Shown here: positions 1,511-57,600 of the stretch, piece after piece
How positions within the stretch are numbered: the stretch's first letter is position 1
Layout of the letters: each line of letters starts with the position of its first letter
Assembly (NCBI GenBank): GCA_965369655.1
Contig: CBDUQR010000008.1
Span: forward strand, 6,966-70,965
From: an uncultured bacterium
Lineage (GTDB): Bacteria > Zixibacteria > MSB-5A5 > JAABVY01 > JAHJOQ01
Direction: 5' to 3'
Length of the DNA: 64,000 bases
Notes under the pieces: model-generated
The model's input: only the letters and a program-made list of their open reading frames with translations
What the model was told of the DNA's origin: nothing
The model's database searches: none
Position numbers and translations under genes: made by a program

Positions 1511-2668
1511 TTGCTTGAGGTGATGGAGATGCAGCTTGAAACTCAGCGCGGACCGGAAGCAACCCGGATGCAGTCTGTAGAATCCGATGCTTTCGCAGCG
1601 GCTCCTCTGGCGATGCTCATCACAGACAGCTCGTTCCGAATCATAACAACCAACAAGGCAGCGATTCGTCTTCTCTCGCGAGATGATTCCGATCTGTCGG
1701 AACGTTCCATATTCGATTACTGTATTCCGGAGGACAGCTCGCTTGAAATCGATTCATGCGCGGAATCGCTGAGAAGCAGACGGTACGGCAGATTCCTCCC
1801 TGCTGCGGAGTCATCAGATGAGGTGCGAGTCAATCAGCCAATTGACATCTCAATTACAGACCTAAACGATGACAAGTATCTGCTAGTGTGCGAACAAGCT
1901 GCAAACACGGACAGAGAAAGCCCGAACATCGTAGAACTTGACCGTATGTTGACTCGGGGAGAGATGGCCGGAGAGATCGCACACGAAATGAACAACTATC
2001 TGACAATACTCCTCGGTAATGTCGAGATCATTCCGATTTTCTGCGAGAAGAAGAACTGCGATGTCACTCTGAAGAAAATCGGCCTGATGAAGGAAACGCT
2101 AAATAAGATCGGCTCTCTTTCCGAGAAGCTCGCGGCGTATGGCAAATCGCAGAAGGAATCGATCATCGCCGACATCAGCGGCCACATACAGGACATAATC
2201 GATTTCTTCACCCCGCAGAACAGATTTGATGGAATACGAATCGAGACGGATTATGATGACGGTCTCCTCCCCATTCGCGGCGACATCGGCAAAATGCAGC
2301 AGGCAGTCGGAAATCTTCTTCACAACGCTGCTGACGAAGTGAGCGCTTCGGGCGTTGAAAACCCGACAGTCACGGTAACGACACGACTCTCGGATGATAG
2401 CAGCCATGTGATGATCTCAGTTTCCGACAACGGTCGAGGCATTCCGGAGCAAATCAAGCCTCTGCTGTTCAACAGACGAGTCTCGATGAAGGAGTCGGGT
2501 GAAGGCTACGGACTTCTTACCGTGAAGGAAATTATCGACTCACACGCGGGCAGGATCACTTTTAAGGAGAACAAATCCGGTGGCTCGACATTCACCATCA
2601 TGCTGCCGGCAACAACTCCATCAGAGCCAGCCTTACCCGAAATCGACCTCGGAGACTTACTTCAATAA
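1511..2668 (+). CDS. Cytoplasmic PAS-domain sensor histidine kinase with no adjacent response regulator
   Basis: H-box EIAHEMNNYLTILLGNVE. HATPase_c motifs LLHNAADE, DNGRGIP and GEGYGLLTVKEII. No TM segment. The start is ambiguous (TTG 1511, GTG 1520, ATG 1523 or 1529). Confidence 0.85.
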   Translation: MLEVMEMQLETQRGPEATRMQSVESDAFAAAPLAMLITDSSFRIITTNKAAIRLLSRDDSDLSERSIFDYCIPEDSSLEIDSCAESLRSRRYGRFLPAAESSDEVRVNQPIDISITDLNDDKYLLVCEQAANTDRESPNIVELDRMLTRGEMAGEIAHEMNNYLTILLGNVEIIPIFCEKKNCDVTLKKIGLMKETLNKIGSLSEKLAAYGKSQKESIIADISGHIQDIIDFFTPQNRFDGIRIETDYDDGLLPIRGDIGKMQQAVGNLLHNAADEVSASGVENPTVTVTTRLSDDSSHVMISVSDNGRGIPEQIKPLLFNRRVSMKESGEGYGLLTVKEIIDSHAGRITFKENKSGGSTFTIMLPATTPSEPALPEIDLGDLLQ

Positions 2669-3885
2669 TCACATGGCGGGGGGCCGCCTCCGAAAATGTA
2701 CTCTATCAAATATACAACATCATCGATATCAACGTTGTCACTACAATCAACATCGCCCGACAATCCACTGCACGCCGGCTCGTCACCGCCGCCGAATATG
2801 TAGTTGATCAAATATACCACATCGTCGATATCTACGCCGCCGGAACCATCGGCGTCGCCTCGAGCGTATTCACACGGTGGCCCGATGTGACGCACCGCGG
2901 CTACCTGAGCGCCATCGCCTACCGGGAATGTCCTGATGATCGTCCCGGCGCTGTCGAGTTCGGTCACGGAGTCATCGGCGAAGTTCAACGAGAATACAGT
3001 CGAGTCGGAAGCTATCGTGACCGACATCACGCCCCCGTCGGTCAGTATCGGGTTCGATGGTCCCCGCAGAACATCGTACGATTCAGCATCGAAAGTCAGC
3101 ACATGCCCCGGGCTTCCGGGCTGCCACCAGCCCTCGCCCGCAGCGAGGAATCCGATATTGTCGGGCAATATCTCGATATCGGTCGGGTCACCGCCGATGA
3201 GGATTGAGTCGAGCACGACCATCTGGTCCGGGTCGAGCACATACACCGAACCGGTGCCATCGTATTCCCCGGTGCACACGACATAAAGATCGCCATTCGG
3301 TCCGAACGTCAGATCGCTCGGATTCTCGCCGACCTGAACCGGAGCGAGTGTTGAGTCTCCCCTGTTGTCCCATGCCGCCACGAAACCATGATCGTAGCTC
3401 GTATCCTGCCAAACGAATGACACGGTCGTGATAAAGCTCGTGTCACCTCTCACCACGATGCCCTGCGGGTTTTCTCCGCTGATCGGCGACTCGCTGATAA
3501 TCTCACCCGCTGAAGTGAATTTCGAGATCGTGCCGGTCAGCCAGTTTGTTACGAGAAATGTATCAGGCGCAATCTGTGCCATCTTCCACGGATTCCTGTT
3601 GGCGCCGAGAAATATCTCCCGCACTACCTGTCGGTCGATGAGATCATACATGTAAATATCCGATGTGCCCGAGTTGACGATGTACGCCGTGTCGCGCACG
3701 ATCAGAATATCATTCGGCCACAGACCGAGTGTCAGGATGTCGTTTGAGACCTGCTCGGTTTCGAGATCGACCATGCTGAGCGTCTCGGCTGAGCCATTGA
3801 TTACATAAAGTTCGTCTGATTTCAGCGTTGCCGACAGCGATACCACAGCAAGGATCATGGTTGTAAATACTGCGATGCGTAACAT
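2662..3885 (-). CDS. Secreted beta-propeller protein (YncE/YVTN-like repeats) with a C-terminal double dockerin-like module
   Basis: Signal peptide MLRIAVFTTMILAVVSLSA. GGAGG Shine-Dalgarno about 7 nt upstream of ATG 3885. Repetitive strand-rich body. The tail is GDADGSGGVDIDDVVYLINYIFGGG...DVDCSDNVDIDDVVYLIEYIFGGGPPPCDY. It lies 17 nt downstream of the TonB receptor. Confidence 0.75.
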   Translation of the reverse strand: MLRIAVFTTMILAVVSLSATLKSDELYVINGSAETLSMVDLETEQVSNDILTLGLWPNDILIVRDTAYIVNSGTSDIYMYDLIDRQVVREIFLGANRNPWKMAQIAPDTFLVTNWLTGTISKFTSAGEIISESPISGENPQGIVVRGDTSFITTVSFVWQDTSYDHGFVAAWDNRGDSTLAPVQVGENPSDLTFGPNGDLYVVCTGEYDGTGSVYVLDPDQMVVLDSILIGGDPTDIEILPDNIGFLAAGEGWWQPGSPGHVLTFDAESYDVLRGPSNPILTDGGVMSVTIASDSTVFSLNFADDSVTELDSAGTIIRTFPVGDGAQVAAVRHIGPPCEYARGDADGSGGVDIDDVVYLINYIFGGGDEPACSGLSGDVDCSDNVDIDDVVYLIEYIFGGGPPPCDY

Positions 3886-19542: not shown

Positions 19543-19660
19543 GTCATCACGAGGAGCGATAGCGACGTGGTGATCTCAGTTCTTGTAATACGCGGCCTGA
19601 CTTGAGATTGCCACGCTCCCTTCCTTCGAGGCTCAGGACTTGTCGGTCGCTCGCAATGAC
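19543..19660. repeat. Composite palindromic intergenic repeat, copy 1, inserted between batA and the upstream gene
   Basis: Left arm gtcatcacgaggagcgatagcgacgtggtgatctc and right arm gagattgccacg...ctcgcaatgac. The right arm carries a nested cccttccttcgaggctcaggac motif. A second copy lies at 52957-53029. Confidence 0.7.
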
Positions 19661-43677: not shown

Positions 43678-45132
43678 TTGAATATGAATGACAAACCACC
43701 CAAAGCTTTCGTCTCATACAGTTGGTCGTCACCAGGCCATTGTGACAGAATCCGCTCGTACGCCGAACGCCTCGTCGGCGACGGAGTCGACATCATTCTC
43801 GACCAGTGGCATCTGTCCGAAGGACAAGACAAGTACGCTTTCATGGAGAGGATGGTGAGTGATGAATCGGTGACCCATGTACTCATCTTCTCCGACCAAG
43901 AATATGCTACGAAGGCCGATGGCCGGAAGGCTGGTGTCGGTACTGAGACCCAGATCATCTCCAAAGAGATTTACGATAAGACAGACCAGAACAAGTTCAT
44001 ACCAATAGTCTGCGAGAGGCAGGAAGACAACGAGCCGTGCTTGCCAGTTTTCCTAAAGTCTCGCATAATGATTGACTTCAGTTCCCCCGAATCAACGAAT
44101 GAACATTGGGAGAAGTTACTTCGTGCGCTATATGGCAAGCCAATTCATACGAAGCCTAGTCTTGGAAAACCACCATCATACATTACTGATGATGCCCAGA
44201 AACCATCCCTTCCAACCTTGGGCAGATATTTAACATTACGAGATGCCTTGTTGAACGGCAAACCCACTATCCCTCTTTGTAGGCAAGATTTCATAGACTC
44301 CGCGATCTCTTATGCGGATGCATTGCGCGTTCGAGAGGATCCCAATGTCGATCACATCGACGAGAAAGTTCTGGAGGACCTCCATACCATGCTTCCGCTC
44401 CGGGATCAATTGATTGACTGGCTACTTATTGAGACTGCTCTTCAAACGGACTCGGAGTTCAAGGAAGTTCTTCTTGGTTTCCTTGAAAAATTGCTTGCCC
44501 TCAAGTATCGTCTACCTGAACTGACTCAATGGAACGAATCATGGTTCGATGCCCAGAGGTTCTTCGTGTATGAAATGTTTCTGTATCTTATCGCAATACT
44601 TATCAAGAACAACAGATACGGCACTATTCAGTCATTCCTGACAACTAGCTACTTACTGCCCGAGTCGGAACAGCGGTTGAGAAGAGATTTTGTCTCATTT
44701 GATGAGTTCCACACACACTCTGAAGCGTTAGCATATCGGAATGATCGTCTGAAGCTCAATCGGCTCAGTCCTATCGCAGACCTTGTTAAAGAACGTGCAA
44801 CAAGAAAAGATTTACCGTTTCGGGACATTATGCAAGCAGAACTAGTTGTCCTTCTAGTTTCACTTCTTTCTGATGGCCAGCTTTGGTATCCTCACACGAT
44901 CGTTTACGCCAGCCGAAACCAACGTTTCCCGTTATTTGTGCGAGCCGCCCAACACAAGTACTTTGAAAGATTGAACACGATCACAGGAATCAAGTCAGGC
45001 GATGAGCTACGAGAGAAATTCAAAGATGGGTGGGAAGAACATAATACCAACCAATGGATACCCTGGATGTTTAGGACAAATGTATCAATTTGGGATTCAA
45101 TGAACATGGATGCCTTGGATACAATAACATGA
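43678..45132 (+). CDS. SEFIR/TIR-like N-terminal domain protein with an unassigned helical C-terminal domain
   Basis: KAFVSYSWSS...GVDIILDQWHLSEGQDKYAFMERMVSDESVTHVLIFSDQEYATKADGRKAGVGTETQII fits the bacterial SEFIR/TIR_2 pattern. About 320 further residues have no motif I recognise. The likely start is ATG 43684 (TTG at 43678). Confidence 0.7.
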   Translation: MNMNDKPPKAFVSYSWSSPGHCDRIRSYAERLVGDGVDIILDQWHLSEGQDKYAFMERMVSDESVTHVLIFSDQEYATKADGRKAGVGTETQIISKEIYDKTDQNKFIPIVCERQEDNEPCLPVFLKSRIMIDFSSPESTNEHWEKLLRALYGKPIHTKPSLGKPPSYITDDAQKPSLPTLGRYLTLRDALLNGKPTIPLCRQDFIDSAISYADALRVREDPNVDHIDEKVLEDLHTMLPLRDQLIDWLLIETALQTDSEFKEVLLGFLEKLLALKYRLPELTQWNESWFDAQRFFVYEMFLYLIAILIKNNRYGTIQSFLTTSYLLPESEQRLRRDFVSFDEFHTHSEALAYRNDRLKLNRLSPIADLVKERATRKDLPFRDIMQAELVVLLVSLLSDGQLWYPHTIVYASRNQRFPLFVRAAQHKYFERLNTITGIKSGDELREKFKDGWEEHNTNQWIPWMFRTNVSIWDSMNMDALDTIT

Positions 45133-48065: not shown

Positions 48066-51000
48066 TCAGCATTCATCGCACGGCGCAGGACCGCCTGCGA
48101 AGATGTAATTGATCAGGTAGACGACGTCATCAATGTCAACATCGCCTGAGCAATTAGCATCTCCAGCTTCAATTGGGTTCGGAGCAGGGCCACCTGCGAA
48201 GATGTAGTATATCAGATAGACGACATCATCTATGTCAACTCCTCCGCTCGCATCGGCATCGCCGCATGTCCATGACATCAGGAGCCTTGACATCGCATCT
48301 TCCACGTCTCCATCGTCGTCGAGGTCCCATCCGAGCATCAACTGATGAAGCTCGCCCGACTTCGGCTCGGTGAATTCGACTCCAACACTGATCACAGCCG
48401 AATCCCCAGGCGCGATTTCAAGTGAGTCCTCTACACCGGTGCCCGGCGGTAAGCCATTCAAGCTGACATACGGATCAGGGCTTCCGTCGGCCAACAGGGC
48501 CGTGAATTCGTAATGGAACATGGTTTCAGAGCCTGTGTTGGTAATCATGGCACCTATGTCTGAAGGGGAAGCCTTCGTATCATCAACCCATTTGCCGCAC
48601 CATTCATCAGATCTTGTGATCTTTCCATATGCGCAGTACACGTCGACGCCGTTGCATTGGTCGACAACCACCAGTTTGTAACAGGCATACTGTCCTATTG
48701 GCAAGGGCGGTACGAGAGAATTACGGTCGATATCGAACTGTACCGTGATGGGCGAGCCGCCCGAGAAGTCCAGCGTACCGCCGGCGGGAGCGAATTGCAG
48801 GCCGTCGGAATAGCACCAACCTCCCACTGGTTCCGGTACAAGGTACCATCGATAATCGTTGCAGGCTACAGGAGGCTTATTTACGGTGAAGCTCGTTTCC
48901 TTGATAAACTTATTCGCACAAAAAGTCACCGTGGGAAGATATGCAACAATATCGTAGGTGCAATGGACCGAGTCGCGATGCGCGTTGCCGAAATTGACGT
49001 ATTTTACGTATTGACTCTCCTGAAGATCCAGCTCGTGGTATCCGGCATTGGGAGTAGTCTGAAACCATTGGGTTGGGTCCCACGGAGACTCCGTCACCTC
49101 ATAGACTCGGTAGACCCAAGGATATGGGAGAGGCTTCAGACATGTGAAGCTGTATGCACCTGAAGCGTCCGTATGGCGGGGTTCGAGACACAGAATTTCT
49201 CCGGTATTAGGGTTATACATCCGGAGGTCAATGAACCAGTCGAATAACCCTGGATCAGGGTAATTCTTTATGCCGTCGAGATTCAAGTCCTCGAACTTCC
49301 AACCGGAAATAGAACTTCGGCAATCAGCCCTCAACCACTCGCAGCAGCAGTTGTTGGTCTCGTCGTACTCCGGAATCGTGCCAACGCCAAAGCCATTGTC
49401 ATCGACGCAAGCTTCTACCAACATCCAATCCAGACAATGTTGGGTCTCTATGAATTCGACGTCTTCTGTCTGTCCCATCCCTAACGTTGTCGTTGTAAAC
49501 GCGGTGCCCAGAAGGTCACCTGGATCGCAGTTATCTGGGGGAGTCCCACCGGGACAATGGTAGAAGGCGACCTCGACTGGTGGATCTACCGGCACAGGTC
49601 CGTTGTTGACTACGGTGGCAGTGAAAATGGCGTTACCGTAACCGTCGCAGTCGGGATAATCCTGAGGACGCAACAGGTGGACACACAGGTCCGGTTGGAG
49701 AGTTGGATCCTCATGCCAGTACATCTGCTTCCGGAAGTTGTTGAAAGCTGGTGAGGTCGAGAGCCAGTTTGTAAGCCGGTTCTGGGGAATCTTGCCATCA
49801 TCATTAACATTCGTAATGGAATAGGCATGCTGGTTCCAGATCTTGCGTGTATTCACCCAGCAGTTTTGCGCATCTCCGAAGACGCGTATCCCGCAATTAG
49901 TCACGCAGGAAGCCCCGACTTCGTTATTGGCGCAGACGATAATCTCGGCGTGCCCGTCAGCATTACAATCGGCGACGCTGATACCCTCCACACCTGTCCT
50001 GGAACTGTTCGGCGTTGTGTAGAGTGTTGAACCACCCTGGTCGTCAGCGTGATAGATTCGCAGGTAGCACTCATCACTGTAGATCAATTCCGTGGCACCG
50101 TCATCGTTGAGATCGAACATTGTTGAGCTTGTTATCCTCGATGACCCGTCCTGGGTTGCGAAACTGCAAAGAATACCTCCATCACTTCCCTTAAGCACAA
50201 AATACTTATCACCTCCGGCGACTCCAATTTCAGGGTAAGGGGAAGCAGGCCAGCACTCCCCGATACATGGTGGACCCCCTCTGGTCTCGCCCGGAAGAAC
50301 GGTCGTCCACAGAATATTCGCAAAATCAGGTGGTATTCCAGTATAGTCAACCAGATGCACTTTGCCTCCCGCCACGACGATCACTTCACCATCGTCATCA
50401 AGGTCGAAGTTGCCAACGCCAGCCCACCCGGAGTCTATGTCGTCCACCAGTGACCACAACACAGAACCGTCAGCATTGTAAACCGTGCGACCATTGACCA
50501 CTTCAAGATAATCATCATCCGCGACAACATCGGCTGCAAAGGATAGATACATCTGCTTAAATCCGGCGTCTTGATCAGCCCAGGACCTGTTCTCGCCCCA
50601 GAAGGCGCCAGGTACGCCGGTGAACAGCTGACCGTCAACGGAGTTCAGTACGACGTTGCCCACGATAATCTCTGGAGTTCCATCTTTGTTGATGTCGGCG
50701 ATGGATATGCCGGAAAAGCGAATGCCTTGTGACGGTTGTGTGCTTGTCCACTCGATCCAAACTTCGTCCGGATCGTTCGGATCGTAAATACCGTCATTGT
50801 TAAAATCAAGGACATCTATGCGGAAAAGTCCCTGCCCGAGGGTTGCATAATCACCTCCTATTGGCGCTCCGCGCCGAGTTCCAATAATCTCCATTAGACC
50901 ATCATTATCTATGTCAGCCACCGCCAGTTGGCTGTGTGCGTAGAACACATCGAGTGATGGCGGATAGGTGACAGTGGTCGGGTAACTGAAGACTGGGGAT

Positions 51001-51950
51001 CCTCCATCTTGACCGCTGATGACTCTTAGCACACCGCTGGAATTGGCAGGACTCATTCCGGTTCCGTCGTCGCGATACGAGATGAAGAATATTTCCGGGA
51101 TACCGTCATTCTCAAGATCAGCGACAATTGGAGTCATCAGTACCTGTTCGTGATCGAGGAGGACGGTGGGGGGGGCGCCAGGGTCTGGCCAGACCAATTC
51201 CTGGACAGGGTTGATGCTCTCGCAAGGCTCAAATCCTAAGCCTGAGTCCGGATCGATCTCGCAGCATGTGTCAGGAAGGGGTGGCGCCACGTAGCAGACC
51301 TCGGCTGCTATCAGGAAGTTGATATCCGCGCCGTAGTGATCGAGCATGGTTTCCCATGTGCCAGTATAGTAGTGTGGGGAGCGCAAATCTCCACAAGAAC
51401 CGTCGTCAGCAAGGATACCGTAGCAGTCATTTACCTGATCGACAGTAGTGTACCCGATATGGAAATCATCATTGAAAATCAGCCCAGCTGACTCGACATC
51501 GAGGAACATACTGCCGGGGTAGTATACTATTTCTGCCGAAGGGACGTTGACAGTATGGACAAGGTCTCCGGGAAATCCGAAACCATCATCGTTCCAGATC
51601 ATGACATCGATACCCATACCTGATATGTCACTGAATTCCTCAAAGTCGCTATAGAGCGTCATTTCGATATTCACCAGTGTACACGCTTCAGGATTATTTA
51701 TAGGTCCGAACCGCATGGCAAATGGATCACCGTCCTCGTCACTTGGGATATAAGCATAGTAGTATATATCACATGCATAATCCCACCAGATGCAACCCCT
51801 TTCACTCCGAAGTGTCTGCTCAGTCTGTTCAGACACCAGCTCTACATCTATTTCTTTCAGGGCGCCAAGCCCCTCGGTCGTTAAGCTCGTCACCGCCAGT
51901 ACGACCAGCAGCAGAGCCAGCATTAAAGTAAAAACCTGGAAGCGTCTCAT
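48066..51950 (-). CDS. 1294-aa secreted FG-GAP/VCBS-repeat (integrin-alpha-like propeller) protein with a C-terminal double dockerin-like module
   Basis: Signal peptide. At least 7 FG-GAP calcium loops (DLENDGIPEIFF, ADIDNDGLMEIIG, ADINKDGTPEIIVGN, FDLDDDGEVIVVAGG, FDLNDDGATELIY, ADCNADGHAEIIVC). Tail CGDADASGGVDIDDVVYLIYYIFAGGPAP...DVDIDDVVYLINYIFAGGPAPCDEC. Confidence 0.8.
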   Translation of the reverse strand: MRRFQVFTLMLALLLVVLAVTSLTTEGLGALKEIDVELVSEQTEQTLRSERGCIWWDYACDIYYYAYIPSDEDGDPFAMRFGPINNPEACTLVNIEMTLYSDFEEFSDISGMGIDVMIWNDDGFGFPGDLVHTVNVPSAEIVYYPGSMFLDVESAGLIFNDDFHIGYTTVDQVNDCYGILADDGSCGDLRSPHYYTGTWETMLDHYGADINFLIAAEVCYVAPPLPDTCCEIDPDSGLGFEPCESINPVQELVWPDPGAPPTVLLDHEQVLMTPIVADLENDGIPEIFFISYRDDGTGMSPANSSGVLRVISGQDGGSPVFSYPTTVTYPPSLDVFYAHSQLAVADIDNDGLMEIIGTRRGAPIGGDYATLGQGLFRIDVLDFNNDGIYDPNDPDEVWIEWTSTQPSQGIRFSGISIADINKDGTPEIIVGNVVLNSVDGQLFTGVPGAFWGENRSWADQDAGFKQMYLSFAADVVADDDYLEVVNGRTVYNADGSVLWSLVDDIDSGWAGVGNFDLDDDGEVIVVAGGKVHLVDYTGIPPDFANILWTTVLPGETRGGPPCIGECWPASPYPEIGVAGGDKYFVLKGSDGGILCSFATQDGSSRITSSTMFDLNDDGATELIYSDECYLRIYHADDQGGSTLYTTPNSSRTGVEGISVADCNADGHAEIIVCANNEVGASCVTNCGIRVFGDAQNCWVNTRKIWNQHAYSITNVNDDGKIPQNRLTNWLSTSPAFNNFRKQMYWHEDPTLQPDLCVHLLRPQDYPDCDGYGNAIFTATVVNNGPVPVDPPVEVAFYHCPGGTPPDNCDPGDLLGTAFTTTTLGMGQTEDVEFIETQHCLDWMLVEACVDDNGFGVGTIPEYDETNNCCCEWLRADCRSSISGWKFEDLNLDGIKNYPDPGLFDWFIDLRMYNPNTGEILCLEPRHTDASGAYSFTCLKPLPYPWVYRVYEVTESPWDPTQWFQTTPNAGYHELDLQESQYVKYVNFGNAHRDSVHCTYDIVAYLPTVTFCANKFIKETSFTVNKPPVACNDYRWYLVPEPVGGWCYSDGLQFAPAGGTLDFSGGSPITVQFDIDRNSLVPPLPIGQYACYKLVVVDQCNGVDVYCAYGKITRSDEWCGKWVDDTKASPSDIGAMITNTGSETMFHYEFTALLADGSPDPYVSLNGLPPGTGVEDSLEIAPGDSAVISVGVEFTEPKSGELHQLMLGWDLDDDGDVEDAMSRLLMSWTCGDADASGGVDIDDVVYLIYYIFAGGPAPNPIEAGDANCSGDVDIDDVVYLINYIFAGGPAPCDEC

Positions 51951-52312
51951 CGCTTCACTCCTTTCCTGTTGGGTCCATTCCTATGTCGTTACCGATTGGC
52001 ATGCGCGGAATTGAGAGAAATGGTGCCGCGTGCCCGGGGATAGAATCCACACTTTCGCCGGCGTCACCTCCTCTCGCGCCATCAGCCAGATTTTGTCTAT
52101 AGTTGCAGGCTCAAGGTGCAAATCGTATGCTGACGAGTTGTCTGAATCTATAAATATTTGTAGCGCTAATATAGATGATGAAGTCCAAATGTCAAGGATT
52201 ATCAAAATCCAAAAGGCCTCGATTGCTCAAGACCTCAATTCTGATTCACTTTATGCAGATGTTAATCAATAGATATCAACCGGCGCAGGACCGCCGGAGA
52301 AGATGTATTGGA

Positions 52313-52834
52313 TCAGTAAGGACAATCGGCGCACGGTACCGGACCGCCGCCGAATATGTAGTTGATAAGATACATCACGTCGTCGATATCCACTGCATCG
52401 AGGCAGTTAACATTCCCCACGATCGGGTCCGGTGCCGGGCCACCACCGAAAATATAGTTGATGATAAACATGACATCATCGATATCGACTCCACCGCTCT
52501 CATCGGCATCGCCGCATGGGTAACTCGGGCCGAAGTCCTGCCAGTAACCATGATGAATGCCGATATCCACTGTCGAGCCGCTTCCGACAGCGAATTGTCC
52601 CATCGTGCCGGAGAGAATGAACCCGGTCGTGGTCGTTCTGCGGCCACCGCCGGACAGGACCTCCCAGTTGATCTCCAGACTGTCTGAGGATGGTCGTTGC
52701 GGATGGTACTGCGGGGGCGAATTCTTCAGGTCGAAAAATACTGCTTTACCAGCAGGGTCTTTGCCGGATACGGGGGCTGCCTGCATCAGTACGAGCATTA
52801 CCGCTACACACGTAAATGTCAATATCCTTAGCAT
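52313..52834 (-). CDS. 173-aa secreted protein: a small beta-rich module plus a double dockerin-like tail
   Basis: Signal peptide MLRILTFTCVAVMLVLMQAAPVSG. Tail CGDADESGGVDIDDVMFIINYIFGGGPAP...AVDIDDVMYLINYIFGGGPVPCADCPY. Confidence 0.7.
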   Translation of the reverse strand: MLRILTFTCVAVMLVLMQAAPVSGKDPAGKAVFFDLKNSPPQYHPQRPSSDSLEINWEVLSGGGRRTTTTGFILSGTMGQFAVGSGSTVDIGIHHGYWQDFGPSYPCGDADESGGVDIDDVMFIINYIFGGGPAPDPIVGNVNCLDAVDIDDVMYLINYIFGGGPVPCADCPY

Positions 52835-52956
52835 CGCAATACCTCGCGGGATTTCCTAACTAATATACACAGAAATCCTGGTTTTTTCAATAGTTACTTA
52901 ACTCTTCATTGGGGACTTGTTGAAGAACCCCTCATCGAGCAAAAGCCGGTGACGTC

Positions 52957-53029
52957 GTCATCGCGAGAAGCATTAGCGACGTGGCGATCTCCATTTAGTG
53001 CGAGATTGCCACGCTGCGCTCGCAATGAC
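52957..53029. repeat. Composite palindromic intergenic repeat, copy 2, at the left edge of the ATPase/Toprim island
   Basis: gtcatcgcgagaagcattagcgacgtggcgatctc ... gagattgccacgctgcgctcgcaatgac. The arms are imperfect reverse complements, and the left arm nearly matches 19543-19577. Confidence 0.7.
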
Positions 53030-53549
53030 GGCACGCTGCAGTGGTTCTCGGCATCACTCATCAGGGACCTTTCTCGACAAGTCTCTTATGAAGGCCAAAT
53101 TTGATATGCTCCTATTTGGAATATCTACTCTCAATCGAGATATCGCGTAGATTGACACACGTCACATATATGTATTCATCGGCCTTGCGAACCACAAACT
53201 CAAGGAATCTGATTCACGTTTCCTGAACAACGGACGCCACATACGCCAAACAAAAAGACGATGACTGTATAGGTGTGGCTGTGGTAGTCCTTGACATGTT
53301 GATGGGCGGCAGACGTTCCCTCTGCCTCAATCTGAGAGACGGATTTCTTCGCTTGTTGCGGAACACAGACCTGTATGCTGCGTGATGTAATAATCAATGG
53401 TAAAGTAGTAAACACGTGGAAATCATCCAGCCATAATGGCTATCTGGCGTATTGTCAACTATCCGCACCTCATTGTCGATATGTGAATAGAAGCTGATTG
53501 CATTGTGGGACAACAACGTAAGATTGCAGCTATTCAGGTATGTTTTTCA

Positions 53550-53578
53550 TTGACGACCAATGGAGACAGCCATAGATT
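53550..53578 (+). promoter_or_regulatory. Candidate sigma70-type promoter for the ATPase/Toprim pair
   Basis: TTGACG (53550-53555), 17-nt spacer, TAGATT (53573-53578). A transcript from here would leave a short leader with GAGG 6 nt before ATG 53630. Confidence 0.35.
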
Positions 53579-53629
53579 CAGATGTCGCTCATTGACGAGT
53601 TGGTTCCTCAAGAGAAAACGAGGTTCAAT

Positions 53630-54808
53630 ATGTTACAAGAACTGAAAGTGGACAACTTCCTATCTTGGATAAACCTTAGTTTCAAACCGAGTTCAGAGAA
53701 TCTGATTGTTGGCTTGAACAATACTGGCAAGACCAATCTCTGTAGAATCATGCAGTTTCTTTCGCTTACCGCGGCCCTCAACCTGAATGATTGCGCGTCG
53801 GCAATTGGAATACCTATTTTCAACTTTCAAAACTTCTCATTCAAGGAGGCTACCACTACTGATTTCTATGTTCGTGCCTCTATTCCATTCCGAGACGAAG
53901 AAGCTGTCTTTGAATACAATTTGACTATCAGTTCCAGAGAGCAAAGTTCGTCTCTGCCCATCCTGGAAGTCAGCAGTGAGGAACTTCGTGTATCTTGCGA
54001 GGGATTTACTGATGCAATTCTTCTCGAGAATAAGCTCTCGAAAGTCCGACTCCTGCATGAGGGTGAGGCGGAGCGCGGAAACATGAGGTATTTCGAGACC
54101 ACAGCTCCACCTGAAATGACTATGCTCAACAGGCTTTATGACCCTCAGACCAACCCGCGGGCAAACTGCTTCAAAGACTATCTGAGAATGTGGCAGTACT
54201 ACAATCTGTCCGATGCCAACATGCGAAATCAGTTGTACGTACCCAATCAACAACTACTTAGTCCCGACGGAAGCAATCTCTCCTCCGTCATCCACGATCT
54301 CAAGAAGGCTGACGAAAGAACATATCGACAGTTACTTGAAGCCATGAGGTCGATTGAGCCAAATTTCGATGTCATCAATTTTTTCGGGGGAGGCGCCGAA
54401 CGACAAATTTCCATGTATTTCGCGACTTCCGACCGCAAGAACATACCGGCGTGGACCGCTTCTGGGGGTACACTCCGCTATCTAGCTTTGGCTTACATAC
54501 TGATTGCGCAGCCAGCTCTGCAAGTCAGACCACTGATGATTATTGAAGAACCTGAAAACGGCATATATGTTGGCTTGTTGAAAAATCTATTGAGGATGGC
54601 TGAATTGGCTCCTTCCAGGCCACAGATCATTTTCACTTCCCATTCCCCTTATGTAATTGACCTTTTTGAAAAACACTTGGATGGTATATTCGTTACTAAG
54701 AAGAAACAGCACAGTTCCAGCATTGGACCGATTGACAAAGACAAGATAGCCAAGAGACTTGAAGACTTCCCACTTGGTGAATTGCACTTCAGGGACATGC
54801 TGGCATGA
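53630..54808 (+). CDS. ABC/SMC-like AAA_21-type ATPase (OLD/PARIS AriA-like ATPase module)
   Basis: N-terminus MLQELKVDNFLSW. Walker A GLNNTGKTN, signature-like SGGTLRYLALAYIL, Walker B LMIIEEPENGIY, H-loop FTSHSP. Start 53630 is preferred (Shine-Dalgarno plus a family-typical N-terminus); the ORF track allows 53582. Confidence 0.85.
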   Translation: MLQELKVDNFLSWINLSFKPSSENLIVGLNNTGKTNLCRIMQFLSLTAALNLNDCASAIGIPIFNFQNFSFKEATTTDFYVRASIPFRDEEAVFEYNLTISSREQSSSLPILEVSSEELRVSCEGFTDAILLENKLSKVRLLHEGEAERGNMRYFETTAPPEMTMLNRLYDPQTNPRANCFKDYLRMWQYYNLSDANMRNQLYVPNQQLLSPDGSNLSSVIHDLKKADERTYRQLLEAMRSIEPNFDVINFFGGGAERQISMYFATSDRKNIPAWTASGGTLRYLALAYILIAQPALQVRPLMIIEEPENGIYVGLLKNLLRMAELAPSRPQIIFTSHSPYVIDLFEKHLDGIFVTKKKQHSSSIGPIDKDKIAKRLEDFPLGELHFRDMLA

Positions 54809-55401
54809 AGATCGGATACTACGTCGAAGGTGATGCCGACAAAGCCTTTGTTGAAGGTGTGACGCAGAAATATTGTTCAGGAGCAACTCTTACTCAGGCG
54901 AAGTTCCGGGGACGCTCTATTACAAAACGCCTAAAAAAGGAACTGAGAAAAGCACTACTTGAATTGTCGGAGAAGCATCAATGCGAGTACTTCGTAGTTC
55001 TTGTTGATGCTAACAATCAGAAATGGCGGGACGTAAAGAAGAACGAATGGGTGAAAGTCCCTGAGGAATTCGAGCACATGACGGTTTACGGAGTCGCGGA
55101 AAGAAATATTGAATGCTGGCTCGCAATCGATCGTGACAGTCTGGCGAAAGAACTGGACTGCTCCACCAATGAAATTCCGAAAGATGACCCCTCGGATTTC
55201 ATTAAGAGCAAGTTCCGCGTGACAGAAAGCGGGCTTATCGATAAAGGAGAATCCGAGCGCATACGGAATTTCGTGGCCGCAGCAGACTTCCGCACTTGGA
55301 TCAAACGCTCCGAGTCGTTTAAGGATTTCTGGAAACAGATATACGACAAGGGTAAGGATCACAACGACTGCATCCCCAACGAACAACAGAATCCAGACTG
55401 A
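54805..55401 (+). CDS. Small Toprim-like protein (DUF4276/DUF4435-like), putative nuclease partner of the ATPase
   Basis: ATGA overlap with the ATPase stop codon. MKIGYYVEGDAD (conserved Glu after strand 1), FVVLVDANN (DxD-like, second Asp replaced by Asn), and VAERNIECWLAID (E..W..D motif seen in DUF4276/DUF4435 proteins). Confidence 0.65.
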   Translation: MKIGYYVEGDADKAFVEGVTQKYCSGATLTQAKFRGRSITKRLKKELRKALLELSEKHQCEYFVVLVDANNQKWRDVKKNEWVKVPEEFEHMTVYGVAERNIECWLAIDRDSLAKELDCSTNEIPKDDPSDFIKSKFRVTESGLIDKGESERIRNFVAAADFRTWIKRSESFKDFWKQIYDKGKDHNDCIPNEQQNPD

Positions 55402-55428
55402 TCAGTAACAGTAGTTTAAATACCGTTC

Positions 55429-57600
55429 TCACACATTCCAGAACGTCGATTGGTCTTCGGTGGGCATTGTTGTGCGGACCCAGTCGTATGACGGCCAGCG
55501 TTCGATCTGTTCGCCCTTGCGGTTGACTTCTATCGCCAACTGCGCGCGGAATTCATCATCGAATTCAATGTCTGCGCGAGGAATCGCCAGTTCGATGACT
55601 TTCCTTACACCAACTTCTCCATGAAACTCGGATCGCTGACAGGTATCACTCTTATCATCTTTGACGAACATCTGTACATCAGAGCCGCGTAGATCGAACG
55701 CGTAGTCCTTGACTGTCTGAAGTACGCACCGAAACTCGAATTCAGCAGCGGATTCGTCTTCCGCGCTTGTGAACAGATCGAGTCTGATATAGATATTGTC
55801 GTCGTCGAAACCGAAGTGGAATGCCCGCAGCACATTCACGGCTCTGTGCATAGCCGACCCGGCTTTCATACAATCGAAAATGCCTGCGTCATGCCACTCG
55901 TAGAAACTTGTAACAAGTCCATCAATCACAGGCGAAATCAACCCGAGTGGCTGCTCGATTCCACTTACGCCACGTATACCGCGTATCGGTTTCAGGAGAT
56001 TATCCGGCGGAGTCTTCCCGATCATACGATAGACTGCGCTCAAATGAGACCTGAACAGCCTGTCGAACACGTCGTCTTGCGCAGATGAATGCTCATCGCC
56101 GTACCACCAGCACCAGTCCGATCCTTCCGCGATATATATCTCTTTCCACGCTTGATTGATGACTTCAGGATCGGCGTCCGAGTCGGTTCGCTCATGGTCG
56201 ACAAGAGCATTGCGCGCCGCTGAGAGCAGGTCCCATGCCTTATTGTCCTCTTCATGGCCGATCCATACTCTGAAATTATGATTGATCCACGAACCGGCGA
56301 AGAGCCGAGGGATATTCTCCAGCGAATCGGTGTCAGCGAACGCCTCAGAGGCAGTGATAGTCTCGATCGAATCGTCGTGAACGAGGCGTGAATAGAGTTC
56401 TCTTAAGAAATCCGCACCGTCATTCGAATAATACTCCCAGGCATTCTCGCCATCGAGTATGATCGAAACCACCGCGCGTTCGAGTTCATCAGGCTGCAAC
56501 GAGTCTCGCACCGCATGCAGACTCCTGATGAAATCATTGGCGGCATCGTCCGCATCCCAGCCTGAATAGACAAAACCGATTTTGTCTGACAGCGTGTGAT
56601 CGCGAAACAGGATGCCGATCTCCTGCTTGTCTCTTCGCAACACGTACGGTTGATGGAAAGAAAGATTATTTCCCCGACTCATATCACACTCAGCCCAGAC
56701 CTCATCGTCTGTCGCGATCCATTTGATTCCGTATTCGGCGAGGATCGGAATCAACGGCTCCGCAACCGATCCCTCCGATGGCCACATCCCGCGCAGGTCA
56801 CACCCAAACAGTTCGCGATACATCTCACAGGACATCTCGATCTGCTTGCGAGCATCTTCCGGATGAGAAAACCTCTCGTTCGGTAACTGCATGTGTGGAA
56901 GCGCCTCTTTCGCCAGATCGGTATCGATGAGCAGCGGCAGAATCGGATGGAAGTACGGCGAAAACGAGACCTCTGCCTGGCCGCGCTCCTGAGCGTCCCT
57001 GTGAGCCGGAATAATCTGCGCAAGAATCTTCTTCTGGAAATCGATCAGACTGACCTTGTCGTCCTCCGTGAAATCGTGCCTCTTCTCGAACAGGTACGAG
57101 ACATCCGGATCATGCCGAAACATCGGATCAATCCAGACAAGGTTCGACCAGACAGCCAGATCGATCCACTCCTGCTCGGTGAACTCCCGGGCGGCTTTCG
57201 ACACGTCCGACCGGCTCAGGATCAATTTTTCGTGAAGCTGGTAGTACCGGGGATACGGTCTTATCATTGTGGCAACATTTGCGGAGAAGAACGAGGCCAG
57301 CATTTCCTGTTTGTCGGTCTCGGTCAGATTCTGTGCGCGTTTCAATGTCAGCGCCATGTGGTCATCGACGCCGTCATGACGCACATAGTCATCTATCTGT
57401 TCGATGAGTGATGGAACAAGATTGAACGTCTGCCTGAGTCCGGGAAAGTCCTCGAGGATCCTCACCATGTCAAGATAGTCTTTGATGCCGTGCAGCCGCA
57501 CCCACGGGAGAACAAGTCTTCCGGTTTCGAAATCCTTGTAATACGGTTGATGCTGATGCCAGAGAAAGACTACCCGAAGCCTGGGTTGATCCGTCGACAT
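55429..57600 (-). CDS. Glycoside hydrolase family 57 protein (alpha-amylase / 4-alpha-glucanotransferase type with C-terminal extension)
   Basis: FLWHQHQPYYKD, VRLHGIKDYLDM, nucleophile region MWPSEGSV, and ILDGENAWEYY. Confidence 0.9.
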   Translation of the reverse strand: MSTDQPRLRVVFLWHQHQPYYKDFETGRLVLPWVRLHGIKDYLDMVRILEDFPGLRQTFNLVPSLIEQIDDYVRHDGVDDHMALTLKRAQNLTETDKQEMLASFFSANVATMIRPYPRYYQLHEKLILSRSDVSKAAREFTEQEWIDLAVWSNLVWIDPMFRHDPDVSYLFEKRHDFTEDDKVSLIDFQKKILAQIIPAHRDAQERGQAEVSFSPYFHPILPLLIDTDLAKEALPHMQLPNERFSHPEDARKQIEMSCEMYRELFGCDLRGMWPSEGSVAEPLIPILAEYGIKWIATDDEVWAECDMSRGNNLSFHQPYVLRRDKQEIGILFRDHTLSDKIGFVYSGWDADDAANDFIRSLHAVRDSLQPDELERAVVSIILDGENAWEYYSNDGADFLRELYSRLVHDDSIETITASEAFADTDSLENIPRLFAGSWINHNFRVWIGHEEDNKAWDLLSAARNALVDHERTDSDADPEVINQAWKEIYIAEGSDWCWWYGDEHSSAQDDVFDRLFRSHLSAVYRMIGKTPPDNLLKPIRGIRGVSGIEQPLGLISPVIDGLVTSFYEWHDAGIFDCMKAGSAMHRAVNVLRAFHFGFDDDNIYIRLDLFTSAEDESAAEFEFRCVLQTVKDYAFDLRGSDVQMFVKDDKSDTCQRSEFHGEVGVRKVIELAIPRADIEFDDEFRAQLAIEVNRKGEQIERWPSYDWVRTTMPTEDQSTFWNV

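Follow-up and report, generated by a model that had tools for sequence, protein, structure and literature searches.

A 64,000-nt stretch of contig CBDUQR010000008.1 from an uncultured Zixibacteria bacterium, referred to here as the window, carries two adjacent plus-strand genes encoding an ABC-type ATPase and a small DUF4276-like protein. The pair is probably a horizontally acquired cassette of the HEC-01 type, encoding an ATPase-gated DUF4276-like nuclease with a defence role. Judged by profile matching, it belongs to a family already catalogued in PADLOC as HEC-01A/B; the kind of system is not new, and the pair is a divergent addition to it. What is worth noting is the restriction of its clade to uncultured phyla, its consistently foreign composition, and a coupled swap of residues in the candidate active site.

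Gene structure of the cassette

The cassette and its candidate promoter comprise the following features:

53550..53578, plus strand: sigma-70-like site TTGACG-17-TAGATT, found by a consensus scan (9/12 positions match)
53630..54808, plus strand: ABC-type ATPase, HEC-01A-like, 392 aa (an alternative upstream ATG at 53582 gives 408 aa)
54805..54808, plus strand: ATGA overlap, visible in the sequence itself, in which the ATPase stop (TGA) shares bases with the ATG start of the small gene
54805..55401, plus strand: small DUF4276-like protein, HEC-01B-like, 198 aa, Toprim superfamily by homology

A first-pass annotation of this DNA had described an ATPase gene joined by an ATGA overlap to a gene for a small protein. 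The sequence agreed, with plus-strand open reading frames (ORFs) at 53582..54808 (408 aa) and 54805..55401 (198 aa) overlapping at 54805-54808. The 392-aa form of the ATPase, which the annotation had preferred, is the likely product. The start at 53630 was favored because the homologues are ~390 aa long, their consensus start (MLQEF) corresponds to M17 of the 408-aa ORF, and a GAGG lies 6 nt 5' of the ATG. Transcription from the TTGACG-17-TAGATT site, if used, would begin after the ATG at 53582, which also favors the start at 53630. This promoter-like site was present as claimed, but such sites were no more frequent in the region than expected by chance (5 compared with 3.4 +/- 1.9 in shuffled sequence).

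The ATGA overlap is predicted to couple the translation of the two genes, and it is kept elsewhere: of 52 related loci, 44 showed the same 4-nt overlap with naive ORF calling, and taking the start of the tblastn match instead raised the count to at least 48. The motifs read by eye in the first pass (GLNNTGKTN, SGGTLRYLALAYIL, LMIIEEPENGIY, FTSHSP, YYVEGDAD, and AERNIECWLAID, the last at residues 98-109) were all located in the translations, and the proposed Toprim glutamate codon at 54826-54828 encodes E8 of the small protein. FVVLVDANN was also present, although it spans residues 63-71 and not 64-71.

The ATPase

The upstream gene encodes an SMC/Rad50/OLD-like ABC ATPase with intact motifs. 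Its earlier description as an ABC/AAA_21-type ATPase was confirmed by Pfam, with E-values of 1.8e-25 for AAA_21 and 2.5e-10 for AAA_15. The Walker A (G28-x-NN-x-GKT), signature (S278-x-GTLR), Walker B (E306-E307-PEN), and H-loop (H338) motifs were invariant in 36 homologues; the Walker A lysine K34 is encoded at 53729-53731 and the Walker B residues E306-E307 at 54545-54550. Against PADLOC, the ATPase matched HEC-01A (PDLC04177) at 1e-38, with residues 16-402 aligned to positions 3-383 of the 393-position model, and several further HEC-01A models matched as well.

Foldseek searches with the AlphaFold2 (AF2) model of the ATPase (mean pLDDT 88) retrieved Rad50, SMC, PtuA of Septu, the OLD protein of retron Eco8, and OLD, with E-values down to 1.8e-13 (Rad50, TM ~0.5-0.6). 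The best solved relatives of the family profile were Thermus scotoductus OLD (2.5e-7), followed by retron Eco8 OLD, AriA, Rad50, and RecF.

The small protein is a divergent DUF4276 homologue by profile comparison

The small protein scored 3.6e-5 and 24.5 bits against Pfam DUF4276 (PF14103), which is below the gathering threshold of 30.2 bits, with positions 1-190 of the 192-position model aligned; only 5 of 37 relatives reached E <= 0.01 on the same model. A profile of the small-protein family gave 205 matches among 1.84 billion representative proteins and retrieved distant proteins that Pfam scores as DUF4276 at 34.8-51.6 bits. Alignment of the family to a bona fide DUF4276 alignment using hhalign gave a probability of 99.7% and E = 2e-26 over 177 columns. 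Because the profile retrieves bona fide DUF4276 proteins and hhalign links the two alignments at this probability, the small protein is a divergent but true, full-length DUF4276 homologue. The DUF4276-like partner named in the first pass thus held despite its score below the Pfam threshold.

In PADLOC, the small protein matched HEC-01B (PDLC04194) at 4.5e-9 and three more HEC-01B models at E <= 1e-4, and 32 of the 37 relatives matched the HEC-01B model. Given this modest match, the protein is best described, at the level of sequence models, as a divergent member of HEC-01B.

In the AF2 model of the small protein (mean pLDDT 92.4), the elements run b1-a1-b2-a2-b3-a-a-b4, an order that fits Toprim, and the C-terminal part after them is helical. 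E8 is placed after b1 (strand 2-6), D68-x-N70 at the end of b3 (strand 62-68), and E99, N101, and E103 after b4. Searched with Foldseek against the BFVD, the model gave as its best informative viral match a weak one, a phage RloB-like protein (TM 0.47, probability 0.98, E = 0.03). Against the PDB, chain A of the PARIS complex 8ux9 was matched at E = 0.26. The family profile retrieved only noise from PDB sequences. The Toprim assignment is taken from the literature, in which DUF4276 is assigned to the Toprim superfamily (PMC12065111) and HEC-01B is called TOPRIM-like, its metal site resembling that of OLD (10.1101/2024.01.29.577857).

Comparison with known systems

HEC-01 is a PADLOC candidate system that was first defined as embedded in Hma systems and is not enriched beside other defence systems (Payne et al., bioRxiv 10.1101/2024.01.29.577857). 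The system-level call made here is inferred from PADLOC hidden Markov model (HMM) matches: the cassette was assigned to the HEC-01 type because both the HEC-01A and HEC-01B models match and the two genes are adjacent and share their orientation. Like HEC-01, the present loci combine an AAA_21-type ABC ATPase with a small TOPRIM-like DUF4276-type protein encoded next to it on the same strand, and they show no enrichment of defence genes. They differ in that the window pair is not embedded in Hma, its B protein belongs to a divergent clade below the Pfam DUF4276 threshold, and the members of this clade, which came solely from uncultured environmental phyla, show coupled E8/DxN-Q8/DxD variation.

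The first-pass annotation had proposed a module of the PARIS, AbiL, or split-OLD type. The split architecture of an ATPase with a Toprim protein stood, whereas membership in PARIS, AbiL, and OLD/Gabija was contradicted by the models of these systems. PARIS (AriA/AriB) also encodes a split ABC ATPase and a Toprim-family nuclease as a pair, and its ATPase holds the nuclease until a phage trigger frees it to cut tRNA (PMC11464382). However, AriB is a DUF4435 protein of ~35 kDa, and the matches of the AriA models are confined to the generic ATPase portion at the C-terminus of the window ATPase; PARIS was rejected, as the small protein had no DUF4435 or AriB match at E <= 1. AbiL (AbiLi/AbiLii) likewise joins an ATPase to a small Toprim-superfamily protein, and the window ATPase matched AbiLi at 2.9e-22, but no AbiLii or RloB sequence model matched the small protein, and AbiL was rejected.

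An ABC ATPase is combined with a Toprim nuclease in OLD and in Gabija GajA, and Thermus scotoductus OLD is the closest solved sequence relative of the window ATPase. The two domains of OLD and GajA are fused in one polypeptide of ~500-600 aa, whereas the window pair consists of separate genes. OLD/Gabija was rejected on this account, with the Old (4.4e-10) and GajA (1.3e-9) models matching only parts of the ATPase. In MADS, Mad3 and Mad4 present the same arrangement of an ABC ATPase adjoining a DUF4276 protein, and Mad4 is cited as a DUF4276 homologue (PMC12065111). MADS is, however, a multi-gene system built around a methyltransferase. It was rejected because the ATPase scored 88.9 bits on NCBIfam MAD3, for which the cut-off is 420 bits, and no other mad gene lies near the pair.

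Strict pairing and distribution of the cassette

When 185,579 species were scanned, each represented by one genome, 53 loci were identified in 53 species from more than ten phyla, all in metagenome-assembled genomes. The hosts include Latescibacterota, several orders of Planctomycetota, Acidobacteriota, Gammaproteobacteria, Chloroflexota, Ignavibacteria, Hydrogenedentes, and Verrucomicrobiota, and further Sumerlaeota, WOR-3, Lentisphaerae, Armatimonadota, Nitrospirota, and others. In every one of the 53 loci, the small gene is immediately preceded by the ATPase gene. The two proteins have co-evolved, their identity matrices being correlated at r = 0.89, a value reached by none of 999 Mantel permutations. 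The gene tree mixes phyla and disagrees with the taxonomy.

The GC content of the pair was below that of its host locus in 51 of 52 loci (L014-L065), typically by ~6-7 points. The low GC content held over host GC contents of 42%-70%, including Latescibacterota loci in which the pair has a syntenic position; recent transfer and a constraint on the genes themselves are both conceivable.

Coupled substitutions in the candidate metal site

The candidate metal-site residues of the small protein are E8 (54826-54828), D12, D68 (55006-55008), N70 (55012-55014), E99, N101, E103 (55111-55113), W105, and D109. Among 110 metagenome relatives, G4, G9, D12, R35, G36, D68, W74, G96, N101, E103, W105, and W165 were invariant. 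The set that is invariant across the family and the bona fide DUF4276 proteins is D68, E103, W105, and D109; E8 is invariant among the bona fide DUF4276 proteins, and E8, D68, E103, W105, and D109 all align with invariant DUF4276 residues. The window protein has the Toprim glutamate after strand 1 (E8), and in place of the Toprim DxD motif it has D68-A-N70. The first-pass annotation had regarded this DxN as distinctive, which did not hold: ordinary DUF4276 proteins carry D, H, E, or N at position 70, and one of them has VDANG.

Positions 8 and 70 vary together, and the combinations were counted as follows:

110 metagenome proteins: Q8/D70, 104; E8/N70, 5; E8/D70, 1; Q8/N70, 0
49 genome loci: Q8/D70, 28; E8/N70, 19; E8/D70, 1; Q8/N70, 1

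The two coupled states (E8 with N70, and Q8 with D70) together account for 109 of the 110 metagenome proteins and for 47 of the 49 genome loci, the window protein being E8/N70. Parsimony on 200 bootstrap neighbor-joining (NJ) trees, built without columns 8 and 70, gave 5-7 changes at position 8 and 4-6 at position 70; the coupled E8/N70-Q8/D70 switch thus arose several times, at least four. In the NJ tree, the window protein branches beside the largest Q8/D70 clade, a grouping found in 56% of the bootstrap replicates made without these columns. The recurrence of the coupled swap suggests selection on one shared, predicted site, which is probably metal-binding.

Composition and genomic context

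The surroundings of the cassette contain the following features:

43678..45132, plus strand: bSEFIR (SEFIR/TIR) single-gene defence protein, 484 aa, 8.5 kb upstream of the pair
52948..53037, no strand: imperfect palindromic element resembling a repetitive extragenic palindromic (REP) sequence, within a divergent intergenic region of 795 nt (52835-53629), close to where the low-GC stretch has its left edge
55402..55428, no strand: 27 nt separating the small gene from the stop of the convergent GH57 gene, and right-hand synteny breakpoint
55429..57600, minus strand: GH57 gene, convergent, with its stop codon at 55429-55431

The low-GC island reported in the first pass was recovered as the lowest-GC stretch of the window. 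The pair has a GC content of 46.1%, whereas the window has 52.0% (sd 1.9% among stretches as long as the pair); of all such stretches in the 64 kb, the ten poorest in GC have their starts within 53001-53451. Judged by composition, the low-GC region begins near 52.85-53.0 kb. The upstream gap, which had been called AT-rich, has a GC content of 45.8% and is AT-rich in relative terms only.

On the right, the convergent GH57 gene 27 nt from the cassette is as first described, and its homologues assign the window to Zixibacteria. The four related Zixibacteria contigs keep the order of a TPR gene followed by GH57, with synteny extending outward to ~61.9 kb of the window, and the pair is absent from the slot after GH57 in all four. 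The blastn alignment to the closest relative (contig L009, 90% nucleotide identity) reaches window position 55427, which lies 2 nt beyond the GH57 stop codon, and similarity ends there. The equivalent of window 52.8-55.4 kb in this relative is 1538-3664 on the minus strand, where a convergent gene encodes a 708-aa SIR2_2-TPR protein matching defence SIR2 models (PADLOC Aga_SIR2, 4e-32). In two relatives, a TPR/PMT_2 gene follows GH57, and in two there is nothing between GH57 and a conserved cluster of HMG-CoA-synthase-like, thiolase, and acyl-CoA carboxylase genes. These occupants suggest that the slot after GH57 is variable and possibly a defence hotspot. The conserved cluster was found nowhere in the window, so that replacement or rearrangement is indicated; a clean insertion of the pair after GH57 was rejected, as synteny ends at the GH57 stop and the cluster downstream of it in the relatives is missing.

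The cassette looks horizontally acquired, as the first pass had proposed, because of its low GC content, its absence from the slot in the related Zixibacteria, and its patchy occurrence over phyla.

Near the left edge, the palindromic repeat that had been noted at the border of the island proved real, although imperfect and with indels, and a status as island boundary does not follow from it. The element folds at -49.6 kcal/mol (z = -4.3), with none of 200 shuffles as good, and a half-copy related to it lies at 19543-19577. It resembles a REP-type repeat and is crossed by spurious ORFs. No Rfam match was found in 52000-56000, and repeats around the cassette were limited to short pairs at chance level. 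No tRNA gene adjoined the cassette in 36 related loci.

The pair is neighbored by genes for the GH57 hydrolase, a TPR protein, a dockerin-like protein, and an FG-GAP protein. The 1294-aa FG-GAP protein (48066-51950, minus strand) and a 173-aa protein (52313-52834, minus strand) share a C-terminal dockerin-like repeat (GDA..SGGVDIDDVVYLI.YIFAGGPAP); both genes have native GC content and occupy the place that the HMG-CoA-synthase-like/thiolase cluster has after GH57 in the relatives. Further upstream, the bSEFIR protein matched Pfam SEFIR (1.7e-12), TIR_2 (1.8e-10), and PADLOC bSEFIR (9.6e-105). Its gene has a GC content of 46.0% (0.50 at third codon positions) and lies on the plus strand, surrounded by minus-strand genes whose composition is native. 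It probably represents the acquisition of a second defence gene. The neighborhood also varies at a further spot in a related Zixibacteria contig (L010, 1489-3991), in which an IS200-like Y1 transposase gene and an Mrr_cat/NA-iREase1 restriction-type gene lie between the phosphoribosyltransferase gene and those upstream of GH57; the window lacks both the transposase and the Mrr_cat gene.

Proposed function and alternative explanations

We infer for the pair a complex, a nuclease activity with its substrate, a trigger, and an anti-phage outcome, in a mechanism modelled on PARIS (PMC11464382), OLD, and Gabija. The ATGA overlap would deliver both proteins in fixed proportion from one transcript, and they would form a complex in which the ATPase acts as a sensor or gatekeeper through ATP binding and hydrolysis. 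Once a phage or another invading element is sensed, the small protein would be released or activated. Acting as a putative metal-dependent nuclease, it would cut nucleic acid (tRNA or DNA), and this cleavage would halt the infection, possibly at the cell's cost. A preprint reporting that one HEC-01 representative protected against at least one of T7, T5, and T4 (10.1101/2024.09.26.614923) speaks for this reading.

Several results weigh against this interpretation. The original HEC-01 representative protected against no phage tested in E. coli (10.1101/2024.01.29.577857). In other genomes, the pair was mostly neighbored by metabolic genes (sulfatases, enolase-superfamily enzymes, oxidoreductases, and PrmC-like methyltransferases), and the defence genes beside it were isolated and few in number (HmaB, MzaA, a DUF1156 methyltransferase, and a few others). 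Matches to mad2/MTase_II among the neighbors comprised five members, the same number as for the PrmC-like methyltransferase, and were taken as the same ORFs and excluded from the defence context. Several Latescibacterota carry the pair at one conserved position, and a tblastn search of the small protein against phage and plasmid collections gave no match. In the window, no tRNA gene, integrase, or flanking repeat was found adjoining the cassette. The left edge of the acquired segment is not definable by comparison, as synteny with the relatives is lost wholly beyond GH57 and the cluster that follows GH57 there is absent from the whole window. As for the small protein, the canonical Toprim glutamate is a glutamine in 104 of the 110 metagenome relatives, and a Foldseek search of its model against the PDB gave no match at E <= 0.001, the best (E = 0.05) not being Toprim and the top matches being MogA, ExoVII, and riboflavin synthase. 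The earlier designation as a small Toprim protein is thus supported by DUF4276 homology and not by the structure search.

A selfish module, either of the toxin-antitoxin or addiction kind or acting as a barrier to plasmids and mobile elements, would have the nuclease as its toxin and the ATPase as its restraint, and it would be kept because its loss is costly. The tight two-gene layout, the predicted translational coupling, and the co-evolution of the partners suit such a module, as do its usually solitary position amid metabolic genes rather than in defence islands, the lack of phage protection in the first test of HEC-01 (10.1101/2024.01.29.577857), and the label 'antitoxin' given to AriA in PDB entries. 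However, one HEC-01 representative was reported to protect against at least one of T7, T5, and T4 (10.1101/2024.09.26.614923), and no relative was found in the plasmid and phage collections. We consider this explanation unlikely, and as the line between abortive infection and toxin-antitoxin action is blurred, it is partly the same mechanism under another name. A cellular pair for DNA repair or nucleic-acid processing, akin to RecF/RecR (ABC ATPase and Toprim) or Rad50/Mre11 and without a part in immunity, appears more improbable still. The resemblance of the ATPase to Rad50, SMC, and RecF in fold and profile, the mostly housekeeping or metabolic neighbors, and the common syntenic position in several Latescibacterota genomes are in keeping with it, but a pair present in only 53 of ~185,000 species genomes, with 205 profile matches in 1.84 billion representatives, missing at the slot in close Zixibacteria relatives, of foreign composition in 51 of 52 loci, and with a gene tree in conflict with taxonomy is not what such a function predicts, and the best model matches are to defence families.

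The pair could also be an orphan piece of a methylation-based system (MADS Mad3/Mad4, an Hma-embedded system, or a type I restriction-modification system with RloA/RloB-like genes) that is unable to act alone. HEC-01 was first defined as embedded in Hma (10.1101/2024.01.29.577857), and one related locus has an HmaB neighbor; furthermore, the ATPase matches mad3 weakly (PADLOC, 3.2e-13), and one member of the small-protein family matches mad4. The NCBIfam MAD3 score that accompanies the mad3 match is far under its cut-off, however, and among the flanking genes in the window (seven by Pfam, five also by PADLOC) there was no methyltransferase, helicase, mad, or Hma gene. In nearly all of the 53 loci, the pair occurs as a free-standing two-gene cassette, which argues for autonomy; an orphan origin is regarded as very improbable. 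An ATPase-gated DUF4276-like nuclease with a defence role, carried by an acquired HEC-01-type cassette, remains the reading that we prefer.

Implications for the HEC-01 family

The present loci extend HEC-01, a catalogued candidate defence family, to Zixibacteria and a set of uncultured phyla, in which the ATPase and DUF4276-like pair behaves as an autonomous, mobile, and compositionally foreign two-gene unit. We consider it conceivable, though doubtful, that the clade is a distinct and undescribed ATPase and DUF4276-like lineage of uncultured phyla (Planctomycetota, Latescibacterota, Zixibacteria, Acidobacteriota, Armatimonadota, and others) with a rewired predicted metal site, in which the carboxylates at positions 8 and 70 traded places at least four times. 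If this were true, the rewired site would suggest that the geometry of catalysis, and perhaps also the trigger or substrate, differs from that in PARIS, OLD, and Gabija. As the phage results reported for HEC-01 conflict, well-defined divergent members such as these are useful test material. The coupled E8/N70-Q8/D70 swap would mark the residues that build the predicted active site, and its natural variants may serve as a genetic handle on it.

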